A model generated the notes under the pieces. That model had not been told where the DNA came from. It saw nothing but the letters and a program-made list of their open reading frames with translations, and made no database searches. Source: Chitinophagales bacterium (lineage in GTDB: Bacteria > Bacteroidota > Bacteroidia > Chitinophagales > LD1). Taken from it: DNA of 64,000 nt. The translations under genes were made by a program, and so were the position numbers. The stretch lies in contig JAXLUJ010000006.1 in assembly GCA_046329575.1 (NCBI GenBank), positions 166,121-230,120 of the forward strand. Direction: 5' to 3'. Below are positions 4,760-64,000 of this stretch, piece by piece; position 1 is the stretch's first letter, and each line of letters opens with the position of its first letter.

Positions 4760-4848
4760 TAGGTTTCAGTTCACAAGCAGCAGGCCCTTTTCAGAAATCC
4801 GACTTCGGTGCTGCATTCCGACCGCTCAGAATGGTCAGGTGTTTCAAA
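4760..4848. repeat. Probable degenerate copy (reverse orientation) of the GC-rich interspersed element family
   Basis: The reverse complement contains GCAGCACCGAAGTCGGA...AAAGGGCCTGCTGC. This resembles GGAGCACCGAAGCGATAGCGGA...AAAGCGCGGGTGCCGC in the 44139-44242 copy. Confidence 0.4.
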
Positions 4849-4850
4849 CT

Positions 4851-5003
4851 CGCAGCTCATAGCTCAAAGCTCACAGCTCAAAGCTTTCCTCTTGCATCTT
4901 GCATCTTGCATCTTGCGTCTTGTGCCTTGCATCTTGCGTCTTGCGTCTCGCGTCTCGCATCTTGCATCTTGCGTCTTCCTCTCCCCTCTCTTCCTCCTCT
5001 CTT
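4851..5003. repeat. Heptamer-block array, left arm: AGCTCAN block, CTTGCRT block (about 12 units), CT-rich block
   Basis: 7-nt periodicity read directly from the sequence. It is a module-level reverse complement of 5941-6071. Confidence 0.85.
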
Positions 5004-5031: not shown

Positions 5032-5940
5032 ATGATCAAAAAGTGGCATATCAAGGCTGTTGTGCAGAAAACTATTTCCTGGCTGCCTTACAAGCATTCC
5101 ATAAATTATTTATTTCAGCGGTATGTTACACGCGGCGTCTTACTTACTGATGCCCTTTTTACTGACAAGTTGGAACATCTTCGATTTCATATTGAAAAGC
5201 AGCGTAAATACAGCCACGTGCCTTGTGATGTGTTGGAAATTGGAACCGGCTGGTATCCGGTAATTCCGTTGGGAATGCTGCTGGCCGGGAATAGAAGCGT
5301 ATCCACATTCGATATTGTTCAACTGGTTACTTCACAACAAGTCCGCGATACCTTGCGCTGTTATGTGAGGTGGCATGAAGCGGGCAAGCTGGAATCATAT
5401 ATTCCCAATTACGATCATGCGCTGATTGAAAAGTTTCGCGATGTACTTAAAGAAGAACATCGCGACCCGTTGTTGGAATTCGGCATTCAGTATGTATCGG
5501 GAAATTTTCCGGATGCTTTCAAAAAGCCGGAAGCATTTGATCACATCTGTTCCAACAACACTTTCGAACATATTTATGAAAATGCGCTTCGCGAAACGCT
5601 TTCCATCTTTCGAAAAATTCTTAAACCAAATGGTGTGATGAGCCATCATATTGATATGTCTGATCACTTTGCGCATCTCGATAAAACCATCACCCCATTT
5701 AATTTTCTTCAGTTCAATGATGCCGATTGGCAATGGATTGACAATACCGTTCAACCACAAAACCGACTGCGTTGTTCCGATTTCGAAAAAATGATACGAG
5801 AGGCCGGCTTTGAGATTTTGGAAGAACATCAACTGAGTGGTTCGCTTCATGATTTAGCAAAGATCAGCTTAGCTCAAAAATACAGCCACTACCGGCCGGA
5901 AGATCTTGCGGTGACTCATGTGTATTTTACGTGCAGATAA
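5032..5940 (+). CDS. Class I SAM-dependent methyltransferase
   Basis: 302-aa ORF with motif I VLEIGTGWYP, followed by ICSNNTFEHI and LKPNGVMSHHID (Methyltransf_11/23-like pattern). Confidence 0.8.
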   Translation: MIKKWHIKAVVQKTISWLPYKHSINYLFQRYVTRGVLLTDALFTDKLEHLRFHIEKQRKYSHVPCDVLEIGTGWYPVIPLGMLLAGNRSVSTFDIVQLVTSQQVRDTLRCYVRWHEAGKLESYIPNYDHALIEKFRDVLKEEHRDPLLEFGIQYVSGNFPDAFKKPEAFDHICSNNTFEHIYENALRETLSIFRKILKPNGVMSHHIDMSDHFAHLDKTITPFNFLQFNDADWQWIDNTVQPQNRLRCSDFEKMIREAGFEILEEHQLSGSLHDLAKISLAQKYSHYRPEDLAVTHVYFTCR

Positions 5941-6071
5941 AGGGGAATTTTAGGAGAAGAAGGCGCAAGACACAAGAGGCAAGACACAAGATGCAAGACA
6001 CAAGACACAAGACACAAGAAGCAAGAGTAAAGCTGTGAGTTTTGAGCTATGAGCTATGAGCTACGAGCTGC
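5941..6071. repeat. Heptamer-block array, right arm: AG-rich block, GCAAGAY block (about 9 units), TGAGCTN block
   Basis: It starts on the base after the methyltransferase stop codon. It carries the same three modules as 4851-5003 in inverted order. Confidence 0.85.
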
Positions 6072-21137: not shown

Positions 21138-21160
21138 AAGTTGAAAGTTTATAGCTGAGT

Positions 21161-21244
21161 TGCGTGAGCGGGCGCAGTGAAAAGCCCGCAAGCGAGCGAG
21201 GAACGAGCGAGTGCGGACTTGTAACGAAGCACGCGACCCCGGGC
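21161..21244. repeat. GC-rich interspersed element copy, flanked by short GAAAGTT-type heptamer arms (21137-21160 and 21247-21270)
   Basis: Hairpin GCGGGC-(10 nt)-GCCCGC at 21068+100 offset, i.e. 21168-21189. GAGGAACGA and GTAACGAAGCAC are shared with other copies. Confidence 0.55.
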
Positions 21245-21338
21245 AATTACTTTTAATTTGAATATTAGTTACGGCCAAAAGCCCGGGGGCACGCCATAAA
21301 AAATAAATTTCGCAAAATTGCTTTTAGAATAAGGCGGT

Positions 21339-22353: not shown

Positions 22354-22782
22354 ATGAAAAAACTTTTTGTGTTAGCGCTTCTGTGCGGAGTAATGCTCAC
22401 AGCCTGCCGCAAAAAAGGCAATCCCAATGCCGGATTACCTGCTTCTATTTTAAAAGATACCACCACCATTCAGTTTGAGGAAACCGAATACAATTTCGAT
22501 ACCATCAAACAAGGTGAGAAGGTGACGCACATTTTTAAAGTAAAAAACACCGGCGAGCGCGACCTGATTATTGCCAATGCAGTAGGTTCGTGCGGCTGCA
22601 CGGTTCCTGAATATCCTAAAGAACCGGTGGCCAAAGGCGCTACGGCCGAAATTAAAGTTACGTTCAATTCGGAAGGCAAAAGCGGCGAACAACACAAATC
22701 GGTAACGCTTCAGGTGAATACCGCACGCCATAACGAAATGATTTTCCTTAATGGTTTTGTAAACGCTCCAAAAGAAGACTAA
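22354..22782 (+). CDS. DUF1573 lipoprotein
   Basis: I re-called the start to MKKLFVLALLCGVMLTAC (ATG at 22354). Core motif F.VKNTGERDLIIANAVGSCGCTVPEYPKEPV. Confidence 0.8.
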   Translation: MKKLFVLALLCGVMLTACRKKGNPNAGLPASILKDTTTIQFEETEYNFDTIKQGEKVTHIFKVKNTGERDLIIANAVGSCGCTVPEYPKEPVAKGATAEIKVTFNSEGKSGEQHKSVTLQVNTARHNEMIFLNGFVNAPKED

Positions 22783-23054
22783 TGGATCCAAAAATGAATT
22801 TTCTGTTTATCGGCGGCATGTTGGCCGTGATGTATTTCTTTTTCATTCGCCCGCAAAGCCAAAAGGTGAAAAAGGAAAAAGAGTTTGTAGATGCCTTAAA
22901 AAAAGGCGATAAAGTAGTGACCACGGCCGGAATCCATGGCACAGTTGAGCGCGTGGAAGACGACGCGATTATTCTGGAAATTGCCAAGGATGTAAAAATC
23001 AAAGTGGCCAAAGCGGGCATCTCGGGCGAAATGAGCCAGACAAGCGCAAAGTGA
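22782..23054 (+). CDS. yajC: Preprotein translocase subunit YajC
   Basis: One TM segment, then IRPQSQKVKKEKEF...LKKGDKVVTTAGIHGTV. Confidence 0.85.
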   Translation: MDPKMNFLFIGGMLAVMYFFFIRPQSQKVKKEKEFVDALKKGDKVVTTAGIHGTVERVEDDAIILEIAKDVKIKVAKAGISGEMSQTSAK

Positions 23055-23166
23055 AAAGTTATAAGTTCTGAGTTCTAAGTTCTGAGTTCTGAGTAAAAAT
23101 GGAGCGTTCAAACTCCGTGACCCAATTACCCTTAATTTTAAACTTATAACTTGTAACTTAAAATTA
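23055..23166. repeat. Self-contained heptamer-array hairpin (RAGTTCT-type arm, approx 37-nt centre, inverted AACTTRT-type arm) directly after yajC
   Basis: Left arm 23055-23094, right arm 23132-23166. The complementarity is imperfect and tolerates register shifts. Confidence 0.75.
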
Positions 23167-23173
23167 CCTGCGC

Positions 23174-24436
23174 ATGATTCCATTGCCGGAGCGGCTGCGG
23201 CCGAAGCGTTTTGAAGATTTTGTTGGGCAGCAACATTTGTTGGGCGAAGGCAAAGTGCTTCGAAAACTGATTGAATCGCAGGCCATTCCTTCCATGATTT
23301 TTTGGGGGCCTCCGGGGGTGGGCAAAACTTCTATTGCTCGTTTTATTGCCGAAAAAGCTACGCTTCCTTTTTATGCGCTTAGCGCCATTGATGCCGGCGT
23401 GAAAGAAGTGCGCGCCGTGATCGAAAAGGCCACGCAGCAAGGTCAGGCCATTCTGTTTATTGATGAAATTCATCGTTTCAACAAGGCGCAACAAGATGCA
23501 TTGTTAGGCGCTGTGGAACGCGGCACCATCATCCTGATTGGCGCCACTACCGAAAACCCGTCATTCGAAGTGATCTCAGCGCTGTTGTCGCGCTGCCAGG
23601 TGTACATTTTAAAATCACTGGAACGCAGTGAGCTGGAACAATTGGTGCATAGTGCGTTGCAAAAAGACGAATGGCTACGTACGAAAAATGTGACTATTGA
23701 AGAAACAGAAGCCTTGCTGCGCTATAGCGGCGGCGATGCGCGGAAGTTGCTGAATGTACTGGAATTGGTAGTGAAATCGTTTGACGAAAATCAACAACCT
23801 AAAAACATCACCAATGCTTTTGTGGAATCGGCCATTCAACAAAAAATGGCGATTTACGATAAAAGCGGAGAACAGCACTACGACATCATTTCAGCCTTTA
23901 TCAAATCCATTCGGGGCAGTGATCCCAATGCGGCTTTGTATTATTTAGCCCGAATGATTGAAGGCGGTGAAGACCCGAAGTTTATTGCGCGGCGTTTACT
24001 GATTCTAAGCAGTGAGGATATCGGCAATGCCAATCCGAATGCGCTGCTGCTGGCCAATGCCTGTTTTCAGGCGGTAACTACCATTGGCTATCCCGAATGC
24101 CAGCTCACCCTTTCACAAACTGTAATTTATTTAGCTACGTCTCCGAAAAGCAACAGCGCCACCACAGCCATTGGCGAAGCCCGCGCTAAGGTGCGCGAAA
24201 CCGGCGATTTGCCTGTTCCGCTGCATTTGCGCAATGCACCAACCAAACTGATGAAACAATTGAACTATGGGAAAGATTATCAGTATGCGCACAGCCATGA
24301 AGGCAATTTCATAGCCGATGAGTTTTTACCCGAAAAAATAAGCGCCACCAAATTTTATGAACCGGGCAACAACGCCCGCGAAAATGAAACCCGCAAACAG
24401 TTACGCCAGTGGTGGAAGGAGAAGTACGGATATTGA
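23174..24436 (+). CDS. rarA: Replication-associated recombination protein A (AAA+ ATPase)
   Basis: Walker [10 protein letters not shown], Walker [13 protein letters not shown], and the MgsA C-terminal region [12 protein letters not shown]. Confidence 0.9.
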
Positions 24437-24496
24437 AAGGGGAAAGTTGAAAGTTTCAAGTGAAAAATTTTAAGTGGAAAGAGAAAGTTGGAAGTC
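24435..24496. repeat. Heptamer-block array (GTTGAAA/GTGAAAA/GTGGAAA type), left boundary of the AT-rich island
   Basis: Reads GAAAGGGGAAAGTTGAAAGTTTCAAGTGAAAAATTTTAAGTGGAAAGAGAAAGTTGGAAGTC. Confidence 0.7.
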
Positions 24497-24892: not shown

Positions 24893-25038
24893 AAATAATT
24901 CTCTTATCTTCGAAAAAATCTTCGCCTATGGTATGACAAACGAAAATTCTGTCCTTTGATTTGCGGACAAAAATTAAAGCAAATCGAGCGTTCGCCGAAA
25001 AGCTATATAGAGTAGGTGTCAACTAACCAAAAATCAAA

Positions 25039-25494
25039 ATGAAAAAACTAATTTTAATTTGTTCGTTATCTATTGCATCCGTAAATTTTTGTAGTGCACT
25101 CGCATATGTCTGCTATTCTACTTCATGGGGGCCAAACTGTTTTGGATCAAATGGTAACTGTGACTATTTCTATAGCCATGGATGTAATACAAACTGCACG
25201 TGCACACAACTTTTACAATATCAACCAATTTGGAATAGAACAGATTTCACTTTCGGTTCAGAAAAGGAAAACTCTGTTTCCATAAAAAATTCTGAAGGAA
25301 AAATTATTGCCAATTTAGAACTCAATGACATTCCGGAAGGATCAGTTTTCCGTATAGATTATATCGAAAGTCTTAATATTATGTGCTTCCGCTTTTACAA
25401 CGGTGTTTTGCTTTCAAAAATTTCGGATATAAAAAATGCTAGTCCGTGTGAATTCGATGAGGCTTTGGTTAAAGAGATTAAAATATCTATTTAA
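25039..25494 (+). CDS. Small secreted Cys-rich protein, unknown function
   Basis: Signal peptide MKKLILICSLSIASVNFCSA. The Cys-rich stretch is YVCYSTSWGPNCFGSNGNCDYFYSHGCNTNCTC. Confidence 0.6.
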   Translation: MKKLILICSLSIASVNFCSALAYVCYSTSWGPNCFGSNGNCDYFYSHGCNTNCTCTQLLQYQPIWNRTDFTFGSEKENSVSIKNSEGKIIANLELNDIPEGSVFRIDYIESLNIMCFRFYNGVLLSKISDIKNASPCEFDEALVKEIKISI

Positions 25495-30303: not shown

Positions 30304-30305
30304 AT

Positions 30306-30387
30306 ACAATTCACAATGGACAATGAACAATGAACAATGAACGATGAACGATGTGTCATAAGTCATTGTAAATTGTGAATTGTAAAT
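30306..30387. repeat. Self-contained heptamer-array hairpin (ACAATGA arm / TCATTGT-AATTGTR arm) directly after gcvP
   Basis: Left arm 30306-30352, centre TGTCATAAGT, right arm 30364-30387. Confidence 0.75.
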
Positions 30388-30669
30388 GGCGTTGTTGCAT
30401 GAAATTATAGTCTAAACAGGATTTTTATTTTTGCGGATGCCGGGCTGTTCGCTGCAAGTCCTCAGCCGCGGCCTAACTTTTGTGATCCTTGAAATGCAGC
30501 AGTGGCGCGGCTTCCGGGCTTTCCGCTACCATCCCTACCGCGGTTTGCCAAAATATAAAGCCAAACTCATTTTGAACAACACACACAAGTCCTTTTAAAT
30601 ATTTCATCACCTTTTATGAGGCAATGCCCATCCTTGGCGCGTCTGAATTATTCATGCAACAACGCCATT
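30385..30669. mobile_element. MITE-like 285-bp non-coding insertion with 19-bp perfect terminal inverted repeats; contains a GC-rich family element (approx 30436-30545, reverse orientation)
   Basis: AATGGCGTTGTTGCATGAA (30385-30403) is the exact reverse complement of TTCATGCAACAACGCCATT (30651-30669). The flanks on both sides are ATTGTRA heptamers that would be contiguous without the segment. Confidence 0.45.
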
Positions 30670-30704
30670 GTAAATTGTAAATTGTGAATTGTGAATTGTG
30701 AATT
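30667..30704. repeat. ATTGTRA heptamer array (about 5 units), left arm of the 30.7-31.9 kb cassette
   Basis: Reads ATTGTAAATTGTAAATTGTGAATTGTGAATTGTGAATT. Confidence 0.8.
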
Positions 30705-31895: not shown

Positions 31896-32017
31896 AAAAT
31901 TCAATTTACAATGAACAATACACAATGGACAATGGACAATGAACAATGAACAATGAACAATGAACAATGAATAATGAATAATGAATAATCGACAATGGAC
32001 AATTCAAAATTTAAAAT
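31896..32017. repeat. ACAATGA heptamer array (about 17 units), right arm of the 30.7-31.9 kb cassette
   Basis: 7-nt periodicity with variants ACAATGG, ATAATGA and ACAATAC. It is the reverse complement class of 30667-30704. Confidence 0.85.
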
Positions 32018-32109: not shown

Positions 32110-34533
32110 ATGATTATGTATAGAAAAAACTTTCACTCACTTGTTTTGCTTTTATACGTATGGATACCCCATGCATTGTTTTCGCAACAGGCTAACGATA
32201 CCATCAACGCACAACAGTTCAATGCTGCCTTTGCGGAAAAAGTATTTTTGGAAGAAGTAAATCGCTTTCGCAATTCCTCGGGAATCGACCCTTTAATTTC
32301 AGATGAAGCGCTTCAAAAATCTGCTAACGATCAGGCACAATATTGCCGTTACAATAACAAACTTACCTATACTCAGGAACGCAATACCGAAAAGGCTGAT
32401 GCCGTGAAACGCGCGCGGTACTTCAAGTCTAACGCTTTTTTAATAGGCGAATCGAACGCTATGGTGTTCGTTCGCCAACCGTTTACGCACCCGGTAACGC
32501 ATGCGCCTACCACGATCGAAACGTACAAGCAACTGGCACAATATCTGTTTTCTATTTGGTGGAAAAACAAAAACGATAACGGTCCAATTGCAGACGGCAC
32601 CTACGTTTCAACAGGTTTGGGATTCAGCTTTAGCGACAACGGTCATCTTCTTTTTGTAGTGCAATCGCTGGGCTCGGCATCTTATAAGCCGATGAAAAAT
32701 CGTTTGGTTTACAGCGATACTACTTTTGGCATTCACGATTATTCCGGGCGGTGTAAAGTGCCCGACGACAACAATTTTCTCGCTCACATTTTATCGAATT
32801 ATCTGGTAAGGCGGGATGATAGTCTGTTCATTTATTACATGGCCGAGCAGCGGTTCAAAAGACTCATTCAACGGCCCAACGACGGCATTGCCGTAGATTT
32901 ATTATTCAGCGATCAGTTCAGTTGCAAAGGCGAAAACAATTTACATCCGTCATCAGTATTCGACGGCTATTTGTTGCCTCCGGTATATCGCGATGATCTT
33001 ATCAAAAACGATGAATTTAAGGACGAACGGTTTTTGTCGTTTGTAGGTGTAATTCCGGCTGCTGTGGCCAACGCGCCCGATTTGCAGTTCAACACCTTAC
33101 TGATTCAAAACGGCAATTTGTGCCGGTATTCGTTTCCGGTAGAAGTGCTTTCCGATTTGATAGAAGATGTTTCCATTGCGCCGCAGTGGTGCGAAGAGCA
33201 GGGAACTATTAAAACCGGGAAAGCTGCTTTTGTAAAGGAATTTGAAATTCCATTTGAACGAAATGAAACCAATGCCGACAGTTTTTATTTTGAAAAGCTG
33301 GACCGATTGATTGATGTTTTCGGCACCAGCATTCATCATATCGAAATTACGGCATACAGTTCAGTAGAAGGCAAGGAGGCCATCAATTTAAGCTTGCAAA
33401 CCCAGCGCGCCGCCTTTTTGGAGAAGTATATTTCAGAACGTTTGCAGAAAAAGGTTCCCATTGCAAAAAAGGCGGAAGAAAACTGGAATTTGTTTTATGA
33501 GCAAGTGAAGGGAACGCCCTATGCGCGCGACTTTCAGGGCATGACTACGGAACAGATCCGCACTGCGGTAAACAGTTCGGAAAGTGCGGTAATTCAGCAT
33601 TGGCTCGATTTGCAGCGGCATTCCACCATTCGCATTTATGTTGAAAAGGAGTACAATCAATGGAGTCCGGCAGGAGATATGCCGTTAGTGCTTTACGATG
33701 CCCTGCAACGCAACGATACATCGCAGGCCCGGATTGCATACACTAAAATAATCAAGGCTGTAGAGCGTAATGAGATCAGGAAGTATTACCTCACTGCAGT
33801 TGAGGTGCCTTTAAAAGAAGCGTATTTGCCACTGATCAGCAATTACCTGGCTTCGATTATTGTAGAATCCGATGTTTTCAATTACAGCCATTTCAGCAGC
33901 GGGTATTTCGATTATATCGACAGCGCCCAAAGGCGTTTCCCTGATTTTGTGCCCTTGCTATTCAATCTGGAAATTTTCAAAATGCATTGTTATTTGCGCG
34001 GACTGGCGTATAACGAACGCCAAACGAATGAAGAGACTTTTAGAAGAATTTCTGCAGGATTATTGAAATTAAAGCAGACCGGGCTAATTGACACTGCTGT
34101 TATGAATGCGGCGTTTTACAATTATTATTTGACTGCCGCAGTTTACTACCGCAATATTTATAGGTATAAAGAAATGGGCGAATCGTTCGACAAGTTGAAA
34201 CCGTATTTGCCATTAAGCAAACTCAACGCAGCCGATGTATTTACGATCGGGAAGTTCTTCAACTATTTTTACCGGTTAGACATGACCATTGATTTGCTGG
34301 AGCGTTATGAAAAAATTTATCCTGACGATAAGGACCTCATCTATCTGTATGTGAGCAGTGGCGCGCTATTTATGATGGATGAAAGTTCCAGGAGCAAGAA
34401 ATACTATGAGAAACTGGATCAATTTTCGAAATATGATAAGAGCCGCTTCTGCGAATGGATTAATAGTAATTATCAACTGCTGCGTTATGAAAAAATGAAG
34501 GCATTGGCTTGTGGTGTTTGCGGCAGAAAATAG
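32110..34533 (+). CDS. Large secreted multi-domain protein (N-terminal CAP/SCP-like region; central OmpA-C-like signature; helical repeat C-terminus), function unknown
   Basis: I re-called the start to MIMYRKNFHSLVLLLYVWIPHALFSQQ (ATG at 32110), because the track start lies in the heptamer array. Signatures: EEVNRFRNSSGIDPLISDEALQKSANDQAQYC and IEITAYSSVEGKEAINLSLQTQRAAFLEKYI. Confidence 0.7.
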   Translation: MIMYRKNFHSLVLLLYVWIPHALFSQQANDTINAQQFNAAFAEKVFLEEVNRFRNSSGIDPLISDEALQKSANDQAQYCRYNNKLTYTQERNTEKADAVKRARYFKSNAFLIGESNAMVFVRQPFTHPVTHAPTTIETYKQLAQYLFSIWWKNKNDNGPIADGTYVSTGLGFSFSDNGHLLFVVQSLGSASYKPMKNRLVYSDTTFGIHDYSGRCKVPDDNNFLAHILSNYLVRRDDSLFIYYMAEQRFKRLIQRPNDGIAVDLLFSDQFSCKGENNLHPSSVFDGYLLPPVYRDDLIKNDEFKDERFLSFVGVIPAAVANAPDLQFNTLLIQNGNLCRYSFPVEVLSDLIEDVSIAPQWCEEQGTIKTGKAAFVKEFEIPFERNETNADSFYFEKLDRLIDVFGTSIHHIEITAYSSVEGKEAINLSLQTQRAAFLEKYISERLQKKVPIAKKAEENWNLFYEQVKGTPYARDFQGMTTEQIRTAVNSSESAVIQHWLDLQRHSTIRIYVEKEYNQWSPAGDMPLVLYDALQRNDTSQARIAYTKIIKAVERNEIRKYYLTAVEVPLKEAYLPLISNYLASIIVESDVFNYSHFSSGYFDYIDSAQRRFPDFVPLLFNLEIFKMHCYLRGLAYNERQTNEETFRRISAGLLKLKQTGLIDTAVMNAAFYNYYLTAAVYYRNIYRYKEMGESFDKLKPYLPLSKLNAADVFTIGKFFNYFYRLDMTIDLLERYEKIYPDDKDLIYLYVSSGALFMMDESSRSKKYYEKLDQFSKYDKSRFCEWINSNYQLLRYEKMKALACGVCGRK

Positions 34534-34545
34534 ACGGACCGGTTA

Positions 34546-34923
34546 AGGGAGAGGCAAGACACAAGATGCAAGACGCAAGAGGCAAGCCATGAGCCGATAG
34601 TTATGAGCTGCGAGCTACAACACACTCACGCTACCAATACACCGATACACGGATACACGTTTAGATGCAAGACGCAAGACACAAGACGCAAGTCGCAAGC
34701 TGTGAGCTGAGAGTTATGAGCTGTGAGCTTCAACACACTAACTCTACCAATACACCGATACACGGATACACGTTTAGATACAAGACGCAAGACACAAGAT
34801 GCAAGACGCAAGAGGCAAGCCATGAGCCGATAGTTATGAGCTGTGAGCTTCTACACACTCACCAAACTTACCAAACTCACCACACCTACCACACCTACCA
34901 CACCTACCACACCCACCATACCC
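34546..34923. repeat. Composite tandem array: three 113-bp units, each made of a GCAAGAC block, a TGAGCTN block and an ACACAC/ATACACGGATACACG block; the last unit ends in CACCTACCA 9-mers
   Basis: Unit starts are at 34554, 34667 and 34780. 34554-34610 is identical to 34787-34843 (57 nt), and 34631-34666 is identical to 34744-34779 (36 nt), by my reading. Confidence 0.9.
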
Positions 34924-40405: not shown

Positions 40406-40858
40406 ATGAAAAATTTTGTTGCGATATTCTTTGTTCTTCTTGCATTGGCAGGGGCTACATCTTGTAAAAAGACGAGCGAGATGGCTATTTCAGAACCCAT
40501 TACTATTGTAACTCCTGATTCTAATTTCATCAGGCTGCTGCCCGGCCGCGATCAGCCGCTGGACATTCGTTTCACTACCGATCGTCCCATTCAATTTGTA
40601 AAAGGCATGTATGAAATCGACAGCGTAGAAATTCCCGGCCATGTTTATACGTTTCCTGATACGTTGTTCTACACTATTCTCGACTCGGTGGGCGTAACCA
40701 CCAAAGTGAACAAATACCAATACACCGGAACATTCCATGTGCCTGATACGCTTTTGGGCGAAGAAATTATTCGCTTCCGCATTAGCATGCAAGCTAAGAA
40801 CGATGCGGCTTCCAGCACCATCAACTATCAGAAGGAATTCAAGATTGGAGTAAAATAG
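40406..40858 (+). CDS. Hypothetical lipoprotein
   Basis: Lipobox LALAGATSCKK. I recognise no family. Confidence 0.65.
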   Translation: MKNFVAIFFVLLALAGATSCKKTSEMAISEPITIVTPDSNFIRLLPGRDQPLDIRFTTDRPIQFVKGMYEIDSVEIPGHVYTFPDTLFYTILDSVGVTTKVNKYQYTGTFHVPDTLLGEEIIRFRISMQAKNDAASSTINYQKEFKIGVK

Positions 40859-40956
40859 TTATAAGTTATAAGTGGAAAATTGAAAGTAAAATTGAAGTGG
40901 CTGAGATTTTGCCAATCGTCCATTTTACATTTTCAACTTTCAACTTTTAATTTAAT
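40859..40956. repeat. Self-contained heptamer-array hairpin (GTGGAAA/TTGAAAG arm, 19-nt loop, inverted arm)
   Basis: Left arm 40859-40900, loop 40901-40919, right arm 40920-40956. Confidence 0.75.
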
Positions 40957-41070
40957 GGCGGCACCCGCGCTCTACGTTCCAATCTTTTTGCGCGGCCACT
41001 GATTCATTACTTCCGAGGTTGCGGAATGCCGCGCAAAAAGGATTTCCACTTCGATCGCTGCCGCGGTTGG
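40957..41070. repeat. GC-rich interspersed element copy (reverse orientation)
   Basis: The reverse complement starts CCGCGGCAGCGATCGAAGTGG and ends AGCGCGGGTGCCGCC, like the 44139-44242 copy. The internal hairpin has a 13-bp perfect stem, CTTTTTGCGCGGC (40984-40996) / GCCGCGCAAAAAG (41028-41040). Confidence 0.7.
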
Positions 41071-44138: not shown

Positions 44139-44242
44139 CCCGCGGCAGCGATTGGAGTGGCGCTCCTGAAAGGAGCGGTGCGCAGGGAGGAACGACCGGA
44201 GCACCGAAGCGATAGCGGAGCCACGCAAAGCGCGGGTGCCGC
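44139..44242. repeat. GC-rich interspersed element, reference copy
   Basis: CCGCGGCAGCGATTGGAGTGG, then hairpin CGCTCC-TGAAA-GGAGCG (44161-44177), then ...GGAGCACCGAAGCGATAGCGGAGCCACGCAAAGCGCGGGTGCCGC. Confidence 0.75.
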
Positions 44243-44248
44243 AAAAAT

Positions 44249-44345
44249 AGTTACAAGTGATAAGTTGAAAGTTACAAATTTAAAATGCAAAATTTCCAGA
44301 AGCTGCGCTTTCCACTTTCATCTCTCATCTCTCATCTCTCCACTC
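44249..44345. repeat. Heptamer-block arrays (AAGTTRA type, then inverted CATCTCT/CCACTTT type) abutting the cytochrome c stop codon
   Basis: 44249-44287 and 44308-44345. They are inverted at the module level only, and nucleotide complementarity looks weak by eye. Confidence 0.55.
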
Positions 44346-45335
44346 TTAAAGTTCTTCTTTGTCCCACTGGCGGTTCACTTCGTTTTTGAGGGCGGGAACG
44401 CTGTGCAAATAGGTCCAGATGGCATGAATTTCGGCATCGGTCATTGCATTGTAAGCAGGCATTGGCATGCGAAGCTGACGCTGATTTTTAGAAATACTTT
44501 TACGCATGGCATTGGCGAAATCGGTTTCGGTCCATTTGCCAATTCCGGTTGATTCATCGCAAGTAATATTGGCGGTATAAATCAGGTTTCCGGCAGCAGT
44601 TACCATCGCATTGCCGCCGCCCAAATAACCGCCACTGTGCTCGGGCGTTTGCATGTCCATGCTTTTGAAATCGGCAGAATGACAAGGAAAACAGTCGTAA
44701 CGCGCACAAACCAAATACCGCCCAAAAGCCGCGGCATCATTGCTATCGGGCGTTTCGACAGACGACTTCGGATAATCAACTTTTCTAAAATTATCGGTTT
44801 GACTAAGAAACTTGGTCATCAAACTATAATGCGAAGGTACCGAAGCGATTTCCGACGATTGAACTACGGGATTTTCGGAACGAAGAAAAGTAATGATACC
44901 GCGGAGGTCATCATCGCTCAGCCGCGGATACTTGGGCATGATAGGCGAAAATGTTCCTGAGGGTTTTACACCGGTGCGAAGAAAATAAACCAATTGTTCG
45001 TCGGTCCAGTTACCAATACCATGCGTTTTGCTATGAGTAATATTTGCCGAATACACCTCGCCAAAAATTTCAGGCAGCTCCGTTATTTTCCTTCCGCTTA
45101 GTTTTCCATCGCTACCCATATGACAAACCACACATTGCACGGCGGCAATTTTTTCGCCTTTAGCCAATGATGCAGCATCTTTCACGGAGGTATCAAAATG
45201 AATTTTCTCTACCTCATAAACCGGAAGGCCTCTAAAGTGCAGATAGGCCATCGCACTAATCAAAATCACGGCCACAGCGGCCACCAGCAACAACACCATG
45301 CGTAACCCTTTGTTCATATTACGGATTATTTTCAT
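44346..45335 (-). CDS. Membrane-anchored dihaem c-type cytochrome
   Basis: Two CxxCH motifs (CVVCH, CFPCH) and an N-terminal TM segment. I moved the start to the ATG at 45335 (or 45317), because the track TTG start lies in the ftsZ terminator U-run. Confidence 0.8.
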   Translation of the reverse strand: MKIIRNMNKGLRMVLLLVAAVAVILISAMAYLHFRGLPVYEVEKIHFDTSVKDAASLAKGEKIAAVQCVVCHMGSDGKLSGRKITELPEIFGEVYSANITHSKTHGIGNWTDEQLVYFLRTGVKPSGTFSPIMPKYPRLSDDDLRGIITFLRSENPVVQSSEIASVPSHYSLMTKFLSQTDNFRKVDYPKSSVETPDSNDAAAFGRYLVCARYDCFPCHSADFKSMDMQTPEHSGGYLGGGNAMVTAAGNLIYTANITCDESTGIGKWTETDFANAMRKSISKNQRQLRMPMPAYNAMTDAEIHAIWTYLHSVPALKNEVNRQWDKEEL

Positions 45336-45357
45336 GCAATATAGAAGTCTGCCGAAC

Positions 45358-45386
45358 AAAAAAAAATCCCGGCGTTACCGGGATTT
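45358..45386 (-). terminator. Rho-independent terminator closing the dcw operon after ftsZ
   Basis: The minus strand reads AAATCCCGG-TAACG-CCGGGATTT, with the stem running into a 9-U run. Confidence 0.85.
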
Positions 45387-57270: not shown

Positions 57271-59363
57271 CAGCCTAATAATATTTTTATGGTAGAACCC
57301 TTATTGATCTTTTCACCGGCATTGATACTTTGCCGGCGCACATTTCCATTTCCTTCAAACTGCACTTTCAATCCGCGCGATTCCAACAGATAAAGCGCAT
57401 CTTTCAAACCCATTCCTACCACATCGGGAACTGTATTAGCTTTCATTTCATTTGCCGCAAATTGCTTATCACCACTAGCCTTTACCCATTCTCCCGCCAC
57501 TGCCGGAGCGGCAAATCCGAACTGCGCATAAATTTTTTCTACATCGTAATAATGCGCGCTCTGCACTTGAGGGGCATAGGTAATTTGACCGGTATTAACC
57601 GGACGGTGCATATCCAAAGAAATGGAGTACACTTTATCGGCCACTTCACGGAAAACCGTTCCGGCTACTACGTTTCCGTAATAAACGCCATTGCTTGGCG
57701 AGTTCACTACCACAATCATGGAATACTCTGGTTTCTCGGCCGGGAAATAGCCAACAAAACTGGCCTGATACTTTTTGTTACCGCGATAGCCATGGTTCGA
57801 AATCACAGCAGTACCGGTCTTACCCGCAATTTGCAGATAGTCGTTCTTCAAATTTCTGGCGGTTCCATTCGCTACCACGCCTTCAAGAATATCACGTAGT
57901 GCTTTCACCGTTTTTTCGCTCAATAAATGCTCATTCAGCACCATTGCGCCCGGCGAATCAACTGTAGTGTTATATTCCCTGATCTTCTCGATTAACGTGG
58001 GCTTAACCATTACGCCACCATTGGCAATAGCATTATAGAATTGGAGCGTGTGCAATGCAGAAACCTGAACTTCGTAACCATGTGCAATAAATGCGCTAGA
58101 TACACCCGACCATTTTTTCGCCGGTGCCAGCACCGGCCGCGCACTTCCGCCCAACTCAATACTCACCGGCTCGGTGAAACCAAAGGCCTTCAAATGATCG
58201 TAGAATTTTGAAGGTTTTGCGGAGTAGTTGGCAAAAGCCAGTTTTGCAATAGCAACATTAGAAGATACTTCTATGGCGCGCTTCAGTGAAAGCGATGGCG
58301 TTTCAGGCGCCTCATGATCTTTTATGGTTAGATTGTAGAATTGCTTCACCCCATTTTCGCAATCCACTGAAGTGTTTTCGTTTACCAATCCGTCTTCCAT
58401 CAAAGCCGCAACTGTAGCCAGTTTGAAGGTAGATCCGGGCTCTGTAGCTTCTCCAATTGCATAGTTGAAAAGCTCTTTATAGTTTGCCGAATCTTTCCTG
58501 CCTAAATTGGCAATAGCACGGATTTTTCCGGTTTTCACTTCCATTAAAATGGCACATCCGTGTTCAGCATTAAAACTGGTGAGCGAACGGCGCAAGGCAT
58601 CTTCAGCAACATCCTGAAGGTTCACATCAATGGTAGTATAAATGTCGCGGCCCGATTGCGAAGCCACATCATCTTTTGTGTCCAACGGCTTGGAAGCGCC
58701 ACCGGAAAGTTTGCGATACAACTTCATTCCGGCCAAACCGCTAAGATCTTTGTTGTATTTTAATTCCACGCCCGATGAGTAAATACCGTCGTGATTTTCG
58801 TCGCTTCCTAAAGTGCGGAGCGCGATATCGCCAAAGGGATGGTCGCGCCATTCTTTGGTTTCCACTATCATGCCAGAAGTATTTTTGCTTTGCCGAAACC
58901 ACGGCCATTGCTTCATGGCATTCAACTCGGCCAGCGAAATGTTGCGCTTCAGCAAATAATACGCATCTTTCTTTTTACGATGAAAAACAAACTCGCGGCG
59001 ATAGTCTTCCTTTGATTTATCGCCAAAAGTTTCGGCCATCATCATCGCCACCGAATCTACATTCTGATTGCTGAACACCTTATCGGTTAATCCATCAGCA
59101 TTAAAGTCAATGTGCACATCAAAAATGGGAAGTGAACTGGCCAGCAGCTTTCCATCGCACGAATAAATATTGCCGCGCTCAGCCTCAACTTTTTTCGGAA
59201 AAATCGTCAAACTATCAGCATGGGCAATTAAAGCCGGACCATCATAAATTTGCGTTTGTGCCGCTTTGAAAATGATGCCGGCGCCAAGCAATGCGATAAA
59301 TACGAATCCAATGTAGATTCGCACCATCACTTCCCGCTTTTTGTTGCTGCCTTTCATTTCCAA
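57270..59363 (-). CDS. ftsI: Peptidoglycan D,D-transpeptidase FtsI (PBP3-type)
   Basis: N-terminal TM, PBP dimerisation domain, transpeptidase motifs STFK (GSTFKLATV), SSN (EVSSNVA) and KTG (GKTGTA), and a C-terminal PASTA-like tail. Confidence 0.9.
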   Translation of the reverse strand: MEMKGSNKKREVMVRIYIGFVFIALLGAGIIFKAAQTQIYDGPALIAHADSLTIFPKKVEAERGNIYSCDGKLLASSLPIFDVHIDFNADGLTDKVFSNQNVDSVAMMMAETFGDKSKEDYRREFVFHRKKKDAYYLLKRNISLAELNAMKQWPWFRQSKNTSGMIVETKEWRDHPFGDIALRTLGSDENHDGIYSSGVELKYNKDLSGLAGMKLYRKLSGGASKPLDTKDDVASQSGRDIYTTIDVNLQDVAEDALRRSLTSFNAEHGCAILMEVKTGKIRAIANLGRKDSANYKELFNYAIGEATEPGSTFKLATVAALMEDGLVNENTSVDCENGVKQFYNLTIKDHEAPETPSLSLKRAIEVSSNVAIAKLAFANYSAKPSKFYDHLKAFGFTEPVSIELGGSARPVLAPAKKWSGVSSAFIAHGYEVQVSALHTLQFYNAIANGGVMVKPTLIEKIREYNTTVDSPGAMVLNEHLLSEKTVKALRDILEGVVANGTARNLKNDYLQIAGKTGTAVISNHGYRGNKKYQASFVGYFPAEKPEYSMIVVVNSPSNGVYYGNVVAGTVFREVADKVYSISLDMHRPVNTGQITYAPQVQSAHYYDVEKIYAQFGFAAPAVAGEWVKASGDKQFAANEMKANTVPDVVGMGLKDALYLLESRGLKVQFEGNGNVRRQSINAGEKINKGSTIKILLG

Positions 59364-59379
59364 TTTTCAGTTTCAGTTT

Positions 59380-59724
59380 TCAATTTTCCGCTTTCACTTC
59401 AATCAGGTAGGGCGGCTGATGGAGTTCTTTCAATCCATACGGCTCTACCAGTTTGGCCACTTCGCCTAACCGGCTTTTCTTCATCAGATTGTTCGTAGTT
59501 TCCATGTACTCCCACCTTAGGTTTCTCACCTGCTTGTCGGTCCGCGCGATCTGCCGCGCATAGCTTTCTGCCAGGTGATTGTTGGCTATATGCAGAAATC
59601 CCAAAACCACAAGAAAAAGCACAAATGGCAGGCTCATCACAATGCTGCGAAAGCCTTCGCCCTCTACAATGTCGAACACCTGCAGAAAACGTCCTATCCC
59701 TTTCTTATTTTTTTGTTCCTCCAT
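59380..59724 (-). CDS. ftsL: FtsL-like small bitopic division protein
   Basis: I re-called the start to MEEQKNKKG (ATG at 59724, abutting the rsmH stop codon). One TM segment plus a coiled coil, in the dcw position. Confidence 0.7.
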   Translation of the reverse strand: MEEQKNKKGIGRFLQVFDIVEGEGFRSIVMSLPFVLFLVVLGFLHIANNHLAESYARQIARTDKQVRNLRWEYMETTNNLMKKSRLGEVAKLVEPYGLKELHQPPYLIEVKAEN

Positions 59725-61355: not shown

Positions 61356-61522
61356 GGCTGTAAATTCATTGAAAACCAAGGTGTCTACCACCCTATCGGG
61401 AATCCAAAAGAGAAAACAGGTGCTGTAAATTCATTGAAAACCAAGGTGTCTACCACCCCTACGAACTTTGTGAGGCTCAGAAAGCATGCTGTAAATTCAT
61501 TGAAAACCAAGGTGTCTACCAC
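61356..61522. CRISPR. CRISPR-like mini-array: 3 perfect 36-bp direct repeats with two unique spacers (29 and 30 bp); no cas genes in the window
   Basis: GCTGTAAATTCATTGAAAACCAAGGTGTCTACCACC occurs at 61356, 61421 and 61487. The spacers are CTATCGGGAATCCAAAAGAGAAAACAGGT and CCTACGAACTTTGTGAGGCTCAGAAAGCAT. An AT-rich flank lies at 61262-61355. Confidence 0.45.
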
Positions 61523-61546
61523 CATAGTTTTCTGTTTCTTTGCAGA

Positions 61547-61972
61547 ATGAAACGAACCTTAGGGCTTTTGCTGGTAGTAGCCGTTCTATTTGCAGGCTAT
61601 TTATGGGTAATGAAACCCAAGCCCCCAGTATGTAAAGGATTGGAAAAAGTAAGTTTCGACTCGATTTCACCAACCGGCCGCGAACTTAAGGGGGAACTGT
61701 TATTTGCAAACGAATCGAAACTGCGAACGCAATTGGGTGAAATTGAGTTTAAGGCAAAGATTAACGGTACAGAAGTAGGCGCCATCCATCAGGAAGTAAG
61801 CAGCGGCATTTCAAAACAGGAAACGTATCGCTTGCCTTTCCAACTTCGATTTTCGACCGACGAAATTGTGCTGCAACCGCCTTACCGTATCGAAGTGACC
61901 GGCGAAGCGCGTTCTACCACTTTGTTCGCCAACTATCGCGCACCAATTCAAATCAATCTGGAAATCCAATAA
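61547..61972 (+). CDS. LEA_2 (LEA14/NDR1-HIN1-like) family membrane-anchored protein
   Basis: N-terminal TM, then a pattern typical of bacterial LEA_2 proteins (F.A.ING.EVG....). This assignment is moderately confident. Confidence 0.6.
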   Translation: MKRTLGLLLVVAVLFAGYLWVMKPKPPVCKGLEKVSFDSISPTGRELKGELLFANESKLRTQLGEIEFKAKINGTEVGAIHQEVSSGISKQETYRLPFQLRFSTDEIVLQPPYRIEVTGEARSTTLFANYRAPIQINLEIQ

Positions 61973-63832: not shown

Positions 63833-64000
63833 CCCTTGCGTCTTGCATCTTGCGTCTTGTGTCTTGCGTCTTGCGTCTGGACGTGTATCCGTGTATTAGT
63901 TTATCCGTATGTTCGTGTGGCATAGCTAAAAGCTCATGGCTCACGGCTCACGGCTCGCAACTTGCCCCTTACGTCTTGCCCCTTGTGTCTTGCGTCTTGC
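63833..64000. repeat. Composite heptamer-block array, reverse-complement orientation of the 34546-34923 family; continues past the window edge
   Basis: GTCTTGC block, then ACGTGTATCCGTGTAT (the reverse complement of ATACACGGATACACGT at 34.65 kb), then an AGCTCA/GGCTCAC block, then a GTCTTGC block. Confidence 0.85.

Follow-up and report, generated by a model that had tools for sequence, protein, structure and literature searches.

Predicted hairpins of paired inverted heptanucleotide arrays behind stop codons in a Chitinophagales genome

We analysed a 64,000-nt stretch of a Chitinophagales genome (GenBank assembly GCA_046329575.1, contig JAXLUJ010000006.1, positions 166,121 to 230,120), referred to below as the window, with a G+C content of 44.9%. 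At three loci a stop codon is followed by a run of degenerate 7-mers, a short centre and a run of the reverse-complement 7-mers. We give about even credence to the explanation that these loci are intergenic heptanucleotide simple sequence repeats (SSRs), driven by slippage and filtered in their orientation by the adjoining genes, of the kind known as long SSRs (LSSRs) or short tandemly repeated repetitive (STRR) sequences, and not a dedicated new element. The hairpins would then probably be a tolerated or mildly useful by-product and not a specialised class of terminator. An earlier note on this DNA had taken them for self-contained hairpins that follow housekeeping genes, possibly an unconventional terminator or insulator class.

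Locus 1 fills nearly all of the 119-nt spacer between yajC (22782-23054; Pfam YajC, 1.5e-27; TGA at 23052-54) and rarA (Pfam MgsA/AAA; ATG at 23174), with its array running from 23055/56 to 7 nt upstream of the rarA ATG and its stem ending 14 nt upstream. The array of locus 2 starts at 30306, after the gcvP stop codon (TAG, 30301-03), and that of locus 3 starts at 40857, overlapping the stop codon (TAG, 40856-58) of an open reading frame (ORF), 40406-40858. This ORF has no Pfam match; its N-terminus, MKNFVAIFFVLLALAGATSC, appears to resemble a lipoprotein signal, and we refer to it as the putative lipoprotein gene. At all three loci the 7-mer runs begin 0-3 nt past the stop codon, and the hairpins extend over 23056-23159, 30305-30384 and 40858-40959. 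Their parts, and those of a fourth, weak hairpin, are as follows.

23055..23099 (+): locus 1, 5′ arm; AAGTTAT/AAGTTCT/GAGTTCT units from the first base past the yajC stop
23100..23129 (+): locus 1, centre, unique and containing a little inner hairpin, GGAGCG...CTCC (23101-23116)
23130..23166 (+): locus 1, 3′ arm; AACTTAT/AACTTGT/AACTTAA units
30304..30353 (+): locus 2, 5′ arm; ACAATTC/ACAATGG/ACAATGA/ACGATGA units directly past the gcvP stop
30358..30392 (+): locus 2, 3′ arm; TCATTGT/AAATTGT/GAATTGT units
40857..40897 (+): locus 3, 5′ arm; GTTATAA/GTGGAAA/ATTGAAA/GTAAAAT units overlapping the stop of ORF 40406-40858
40915..40958 (+): locus 3, 3′ arm; CATTTTA/CATTTTC/AACTTTC/AACTTTT units, U-rich towards the end
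44244..44348 (-): fourth, weak hairpin; GAGTGGA/GAGATGA units 1 nt past the stop of a cytochrome c gene (44346-45359, minus strand), a partner arm AACTTTC/AACTTAT/CACTTGT, then TATTTTT

Tandem Repeats Finder (TRF) and a separate array detector both recover head-to-tail 7-nt units in the two arms: AAGTTCT x5.6 (23056-94) and AACTTAT x2.9 (23141-60) at locus 1, ACAATGA x5.9 (30313-53) and ATTGTAA x3.3 (30365-87) at locus 2, and AGTTATA x2.4 (40857-73) and TTTCAAC x2.4 (40931-47) at locus 3. The 3′ arms are short and degenerate, and at locus 1 a faint 7-nt phase reaches back into the final yajC codons, from 23042. Locus 1 is not an assembly artefact, since two independent Logan contigs (L088 and L089) match it base for base. 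Rfam holds no family for the hairpins, its sole match being a chance, sub-threshold plant microRNA precursor at locus 3.

The plus-strand RNAs of loci 1, 2 and 3 fold at -27.2, -28.8 and -27.8 kcal/mol (z = -3.8, -4.6 and -4.3), and all 200 dinucleotide shuffles fold less well. Duplexes of one arm with the other are likewise better than those with shuffled partners (z = -3.4, -6.9 and -3.6). The stems have 30-38 pairs, of which 20-26 are A-U (~65%), 8-9 G-C and 2-4 G-U, around centres of 10-40 nt, and the longest near-continuous pairing is ~25 bp. The best pairing offsets are separated by multiples of 7 at all three loci; at locus 1 the top registers score nearly equally (19.5, 19.0, 18.5 and 16.5). 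The earlier note had described both this anatomy and the choice of several pairing registers, and on both it was right. Because the arms can pair in several registers, the stem should survive the gain or loss of units. The fourth hairpin is weaker: its sense strand folds at -22.4 kcal/mol and the opposite strand at -10.9 (z = -1.4; z = -0.7 for the duplex of its arms). All four hairpins fold better in sense than in antisense. That this asymmetry, due to G-U pairs, proves selection to act on the sense RNA was considered and rejected: two comparison loci (L062 and L082) fold better in antisense, so the preference is not general.

A single uniform array detector was applied for all periods to the window and to 83 other Bacteroidota loci (1.52 Mb). 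Period-7 arrays number 54 in those 1.52 Mb, against 5-21 for each of the periods 5, 6 and 8-11, and the window is ~7-fold denser still, with 16 in 64 kb (TRF reports 26 period-7 rows). Autocorrelation of the 8.1 kb of intergenic DNA, a check proposed in the earlier note, peaks at lag 7 (0.315) and lag 14 (0.310), compared with ~0.26 elsewhere; coding DNA has a 3-nt signal only, so that the lag-7/14 peak is limited to intergenic DNA. Among the 30 window spacers of at least 25 nt, 11 bear a period-7 array, and the three hairpin loci are a selection from these 11. Arrays also follow rarA, rlmN and the cytochrome c, methyltransferase and CAP-domain genes, reach the ftsI start and occur in divergent spacers. 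The link with heptameric tandem repeats suggested in the earlier note is thus well founded, while "self-contained" overstates what is a window-wide repeat phenomenon with mostly unpaired arrays, and housekeeping genes hold no particular place in it. Nor are the arrays tightly pinned to stop codons: 24 of 93 lie within 3 nt of one, a modest excess over the ~16 expected under uniform placement.

An inverted partner was found for 11 of 53 arrays (~20%), against 1 of 53 composition controls (1-2). We do not read this as a specific enrichment of inverted partners, a candidate explanation that was rejected, because neighbours of the same family in direct orientation are just as numerous (11), many of them being interrupted arrays.

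Change in length by whole units was caught once, at one locus. A Logan contig of the same species (L087, from DRR438477) is 1.1% diverged from the window, and its sole indel in 2,267 aligned bases is the loss of AGTTATAAGTTCTG (23057-23070), 14 nt that make up exactly two units of the 5′ arm of locus 1. The earlier note had suggested looking for such 7-nt steps between strains. A whole-unit indel in one arm points to slippage. The 3′ arm is intact, with no change that compensates for the loss, and the shortened spacer folds in a different register, at -21.8 kcal/mol (z = -1.8).

Orientation obeys a rule. In the window and loci L001-L086, arrays were classed as stop-adjacent if they lay no more than 10 nt past a stop codon, and as start-adjacent if they lay no more than 15 nt ahead of a start codon. 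On the sense strand the stop-adjacent arrays are C-poor (A40 C8 G22 T30, G exceeding C in 23 of 33) and the start-adjacent arrays G-poor (A42 C16 G8 T34, G exceeding C in 7 of 24); the difference in skew is significant with the window (Fisher p = 0.0034) or without it (p = 0.0085). Baseline sequence after stops is unskewed (C17 G18), and that before starts is mildly depleted in G (C16 G12). Transcription-coupled mutation bias cannot explain the rule, because the two skews are opposite in the same direction of transcription, and some filter at the transcript level appears to be implied. It also follows from the rule that arrays of one family lying in both orientations in a spacer are automatically reverse complements, so that the rule alone would generate hairpins. 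The idea that the arrays serve as a three-frame stop device was rejected: 11 of 33 stop-adjacent arrays close all three frames, and so do 10 of 24 start-adjacent ones, so that the two classes do not differ.

How far the hairpins are conserved, a question raised in the earlier note, has a divided answer. An exact 23-mer search of Joint Genome Institute (JGI) metagenomes returned no DNA of the same species, exact look-ups of RarA and of the putative lipoprotein gene's product likewise gave no match, and the nearest further RarA relatives are ~80% identical; at that distance the adjacency of yajC and rarA is not kept. No period-7 array lies within 180 nt of any of 53 distinct yajC 3′ ends from distant relatives (at most 59% identity), and none follows the orthologues of the putative lipoprotein gene (ORF150) at 66-69% identity, one of which (L161) has GC-rich stem-loops at the array position. 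The five genomes of another clade (L082-L086; RarA 87-96% mutually identical) keep a cluster of S49 peptidase, AAA_18, dCMP deaminase and rarA genes with spacers full of heptamer arrays. Their deaminase-rarA spacer has a TGATTTA-type array starting at the stop codon and an AATCATA-type array ending 4-10 nt before the ATG. Both arms are kept in four of the five (L082, L083, L085 and L086; arm duplex z = -1.9 to -3.5) around a centre of 20, ~80, ~90 or ~250 nt; in L084 the 5′ arm is lost. Direct reading of these arms showed no unit variants mirrored from one arm to the other. In L085 a GC-rich stem-loop, CCTGCC...GGCAGG, stands inside the after-stop array, past its first unit (2157-2225), and looks as though a canonical terminator-like hairpin had been inserted into the array. 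The hairpin arrangement can thus persist over genus-level distance in one lineage, and the window's own loci are species-specific.

This clade and locus 1 bear on the possibility that the hairpins act in translation, occluding or coupling co-oriented genes: the after-stop arm would hide the next start codon until a terminating ribosome melted the outermost units. The geometry is suitable: the 5′ units farthest out touch the stop codon, and their 3′ counterparts lie 4-14 nt away from the ATG. All five genomes of the clade have a leader motif, GCAATCATAAATC, and four of them also keep a complementary after-stop array despite the variable centre. Translation initiation in Bacteroidota largely does without Shine-Dalgarno pairing and relies on unstructured, G-poor leaders, a background with which the baseline G depletion before starts agrees. 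L084, however, retains the leader motif without a partner arm, and the idea is inapplicable where no start codon stands beside the 3′ arm, as at loci 2 and 3 and at the fourth hairpin. We consider it very unlikely.

Canonical terminators, with a GC-rich stem and a T-run, coexist with the hairpins in the window, as the earlier note had pointed out (20041-66, ~45360-90, ~9431-55 and ~63510-35). We scored as such any hairpin of at most 40 nt and at least 50% G+C, folding at -8 kcal/mol or better and followed by a T-run, within 200 nt after a stop. Over all loci they occur in 2 of 44 array-bearing 3′ spacers and in 106 of 430 others, a ~5-fold depletion (p = 0.0011). The corresponding counts are 2/44 and 41/155 within the same loci (p = 0.0014), 1/34 and 70/285 for gaps of 75-300 nt (p = 0.002), 1/28 and 60/276 in tandem spacers (p = 0.02) and 1/16 and 46/154 in convergent spacers (p = 0.07). 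The median gap is 139 nt in array-bearing and 134 nt in other spacers, and the shares of tandem and convergent spacers are equal in the two groups. The depletion favours some role of the arrays at 3′ ends, or competition for the same position.

It is also what would be expected if the heptamer hairpins were factor-independent terminators (bidirectional in convergent spacers) or insulators that replace the GC-stem and U-run kind. That the hairpins begin at the stop codon suits this proposal, as does the lack of a co-oriented gene directly downstream of loci 2 and 3 and of the fourth hairpin, and so do the GC-rich stem-loops at the equivalent position in L161. U-rich runs close both locus 3 (CUUUUAAUUUAAU) and the fourth hairpin (UAUUUUU). 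In Xanthomonas, transcript starts and stops are commoner at heptamer repeats capable of forming G-quadruplexes (G4) than at control repeats (PMC4692102). We nevertheless think it unlikely that the hairpins are terminators or insulators of this sort. The stems are interrupted and mostly A-U, and no U-tract lies 3′ of the stem at loci 1 and 2; none of the three hairpins has the short GC-rich stem and the loop of 3-8 nt of an intrinsic terminator. Without a partner, ~80% of arrays are incapable of forming a hairpin. As a class, 3′ spacers with an array do not exceed in structure those that have neither array nor terminator (median z = -0.79 against -0.76; z of -3 or below in 22% against 27%), while those with canonical terminators have a median z of -3.9. 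At locus 1 the array ends so close to the rarA ATG that a rarA promoter would fit only inside the hairpin. The two-unit loss in L087 went uncompensated, and neither the 53 distant yajC 3′ ends nor the lipoprotein-gene orthologues have an array.

Some inverted arrays enclose an entire gene. Those at 4844-4977 and 5965-6069 bracket a methyltransferase-like gene (5032-5940), with a predicted duplex of -137 kcal/mol (z = -16). In L083 a gene with a 23S-rRNA-intervening-sequence (IVS)-protein domain, missing in L082, lies between arrays at 2023-2111 and 2626-2685 (-82 kcal/mol), and in L029 arrays bracket rarA (-45 kcal/mol). The strength of these duplexes, and stems of up to ~25 near-continuous bp in the hairpins, would suit sites for RNase III processing or pairing of mRNA ends, the inverted arrays forming long double-stranded RNA that marks transcripts. 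It has to be assumed, though, that both arms lie on one transcript; the bracketing cases are only three in ~1.6 Mb; and the complementarity follows automatically from the strand rule and a shared unit family. We give this possibility little credence.

A different kind of neighbour adjoins the hairpins. All three elements of the window that match or resemble the Flavo-1 RNA motif lie directly 3′ of a heptamer hairpin, each antisense to the upstream gene:

40959..41066 (-): Flavo-1 RNA motif (RF01705), 52.5 bits (gathering threshold 42); abuts the 3′ arm of locus 3
30434..30553 (-): Flavo-1-like element, 26.9 bits, below the Rfam threshold; 47 nt past locus 2
~44143..44243 (+): third Flavo-1-like element, with no Rfam match and recognised by alignment only; termini TTTTTGCGGCACCCGCGC ... 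ATCGCTGCCGCGG; abuts the fourth hairpin

The three share a junction, a T-run followed by GCGGCACCCGCGC, and the end ATCGCTGCCGCGG. A perfect 17-nt inverted repeat, AATGGCGTTGTTGCATG / CATGCAACAACGCCATT (30386-30402 and 30654-30670), surrounds the element at locus 2, and ATTGTRA heptamers flank each copy of this repeat. The adjacency suggests that the repeat is a composite, or that insertion took place beside hairpins. Were the hairpins part of a composite mobile element, or one resembling repetitive extragenic palindromes (REPs) or MITEs (miniature inverted-repeat transposable elements), together with a Flavo-1-like repeat, or were they its preferred insertion target, the common junction and constant relative orientation would be explained. 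The distribution of Flavo-1 in Flavobacterium psychrophilum, with matches sense, antisense or outside transcribed regions, is as expected of a dispersed repeat (PMC9723704). Against this, arms and centres differ wholly between the loci: the arms are different unit families, and self-comparison of the 64-kb window showed each hairpin centre once only. No Flavo-1 element adjoins locus 1, and none was found outside the window, either in seven related loci or by a pattern scan of all loci. No transposase was seen, and no duplications such as MITE target sites would leave flank the arms at the three loci. To a composite element we give the least credence of all.

We return to slippage-driven repeats under an orientation filter. 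Arrays of 7-nt units would arise, and change their length, by replication slippage, a step that the observed length change bears out. Which orientation is kept would depend on the neighbouring gene, C-poor after a stop and G-poor before a start on the transcript; the dependence has statistical backing, and its cause can only be surmised. Arrays of one family present in both orientations within a spacer would then come to bracket, as reverse complements, a core of 10-40 nt or a whole gene; our guess is that the second, inverted array might come from local copying with template switching. The resulting hairpin would most likely act as a generic, REP-like 3′ stem-loop, obstructing 3′ exonucleases and possibly serving as a weak pause site or terminator, and we infer all RNA-level effects of the hairpins.

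Several facts sit badly with this explanation. It gives no cause for the poverty of C after stop codons. A neutral by-product leaves the near-exclusion of canonical terminators (2/44 against 106/430) unexplained. In L082, L083, L085 and L086 complementary arm families persist while the centre varies from 20 to 250 nt. Finally, a slippage model does not predict that Flavo-1-like elements should adjoin three of the four hairpins, as they do.

The exclusion of terminators turns a functional role of the repeats as 3′ elements into a decidable question. If the hairpins are not functional, they are a clear example of secondary structure as a by-product of microsatellites, and a warning for the prediction of RNA motifs and terminators in Bacteroidota.

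Further arrays of the window, unpaired or paired at a distance, are these:

24433..24495 (+): unpaired TTGAAAG-type array starting in the rarA stop codon, without an inverted partner; fold z = 0.0
59352..59396 (-): unpaired array, NNTGAAA/NNGGAAA on the minus strand, reaching the start codon of the penicillin-binding protein (PBP)/ftsI gene; unstructured, z = +0.5
4844..4977 (+): composite array (AGCTCAN)n(TCTTGCN)n, inverted partner of 5965-6069
5965..6069 (+): (NCAAGAC)n(GAGCTNN)n composite array past the stop codon of gene 5032-5940
30667..30704 (+): ATTGTGA array of the locus 2 unit family, inverted relative to 31908-32003
31908..32003 (+): array of ACAATGA x13.7 that lies upstream of an ORF ending at 34533 or overlaps its start

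Unit families recur at sites far apart, the composite CAAGACN+GAGCTNN at 4.8, 6.0, 34.6 and 63.9 kb and ACAATGA at 30.3, 30.7 and 31.9 kb. The array at 59352-59396 (-), in a cell-division gene cluster, seems to come after the stop codon of an ftsL-like ORF that is not annotated. The one at 31908-32003 precedes or overlaps the start of a large CAP-domain ORF, and each of its units holds both ATG and TGA.

Some further repeats and motifs were seen: (i) At 34550-34923 a convergent spacer is filled by a 113-bp unit (two heptamer arrays and an 8-mer repeat) x2.6, then a 9-mer array, ACCACACCT x7, and an inverted copy of the 113-bp unit lies at the window end (63835-64000). (ii) The convergent rlmN/Per1-like spacer, 21150-21338, has long GC-rich palindromes (fold ~-45 to -53 kcal/mol), unrelated to the heptamers, which may be another repeat family. 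(iii) A 66-bp tandem repeat x2.6 at 61357-61523 lies upstream of gene 61547-61972. (iv) The DUF805b RNA motif has a sub-threshold match (23.8 bits; gathering threshold 35.6) at 24985-25018 (+), upstream of ORF 25039-25494.

The excess of intergenic period-7 arrays and their change by whole units are features shared with LSSR/STRR repeats. The STRR units of cyanobacteria are CCCCAGT and similar; those of the window are unrelated to them, and their host is a Chitinophagales metagenome-assembled genome. As Mrazek et al. 2007 are reported in PMC4679880 and PMC4692102, heptanucleotides are the most abundant class of long SSRs, in excess in bacterial intergenic DNA with an abundance that depends on lineage, and polymerase slippage was proposed as their source. 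Paired inverted heptamer arms are reported to be rare in Nostoc (PMC4692102). Within the Bacteroidetes, TAACTGA direct repeats lie next to start codons in five members, as in Beggiatoaceae and cyanobacteria (MacGregor 2015, PMC4679880), and other heptamer direct repeats are known from intergenic regions of Gramella forsetii and Aequorivita sublithincola (PMC4679880). The TAACTGA case differs from ours in having a single unit, essentially no inverted pairs and a proposed role in translation (PMC4679880).

Like intrinsic (Rho-independent) terminators, the hairpins place a stem-loop shortly after a stop codon; unlike them, they have interrupted, AU-rich stems of 30-38 bp and, at loci 1 and 2, no U-tract. 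The closest match for how they would work is the REPs and bacterial interspersed mosaic elements (BIMEs) of enterobacteria, imperfect palindromes that lie after stops or between the genes of operons and form 3′ stem-loops able to stabilise the upstream mRNA. REPs are a conserved family of 35-40 nt in hundreds of copies, whereas here arms and centre are specific to each locus and the arms are tandem repeats.

The closest precedent comes from Xanthomonas campestris and X. axonopodis, whose GGGAATC repeats form 70-75 convergent inverted pairs per genome, potential stem-loops (Rehm et al. 2015, PMC4692102). Little of the novelty once claimed survives it: the earlier note, aware of no described Bacteroidota equivalent with paired inverted arms, put the matter too strongly, given such pairs at stop codons in Xanthomonas and the heptamers of other Bacteroidetes (PMC4679880). 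The G-rich strand is sense when the repeats lie within 50 bp of a stop codon or overlap it, and the C-rich strand is sense upstream of ORFs; between the two species 83% of positions are conserved, with lengths that differ and a pair type that is usually preserved (PMC4692102). The window shares with this system the intergenic tandem 7-nt units, the convergent inverted pairs and the same strand rule relative to genes. It departs from it in phylum and in having several unrelated, AT-rich families in place of one dominant, G-rich and G4-capable unit per genome. With no G3 tracts in its AAGTTCT, ACAATGA and TTGAAAG units, and hence no G4 potential, the window cannot be covered by the G4 explanation offered for Xanthomonas. 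A wider reading would see in all this an RNA-level punctuation of gene boundaries that spans phyla, C-poor arrays marking the region after stops and G-poor arrays that before starts, with register-tolerant stems that replace terminators, insulate cistrons or pair mRNA ends. We rate it decidedly unlikely, and keep it open because of the strand rule in Xanthomonas and in 84 Bacteroidota loci, the depletion of terminators and the persistence of arms in the L082-L086 clade. That the same strand rule holds in the window, without G4 potential, points to a shared cause at the level of the transcript.

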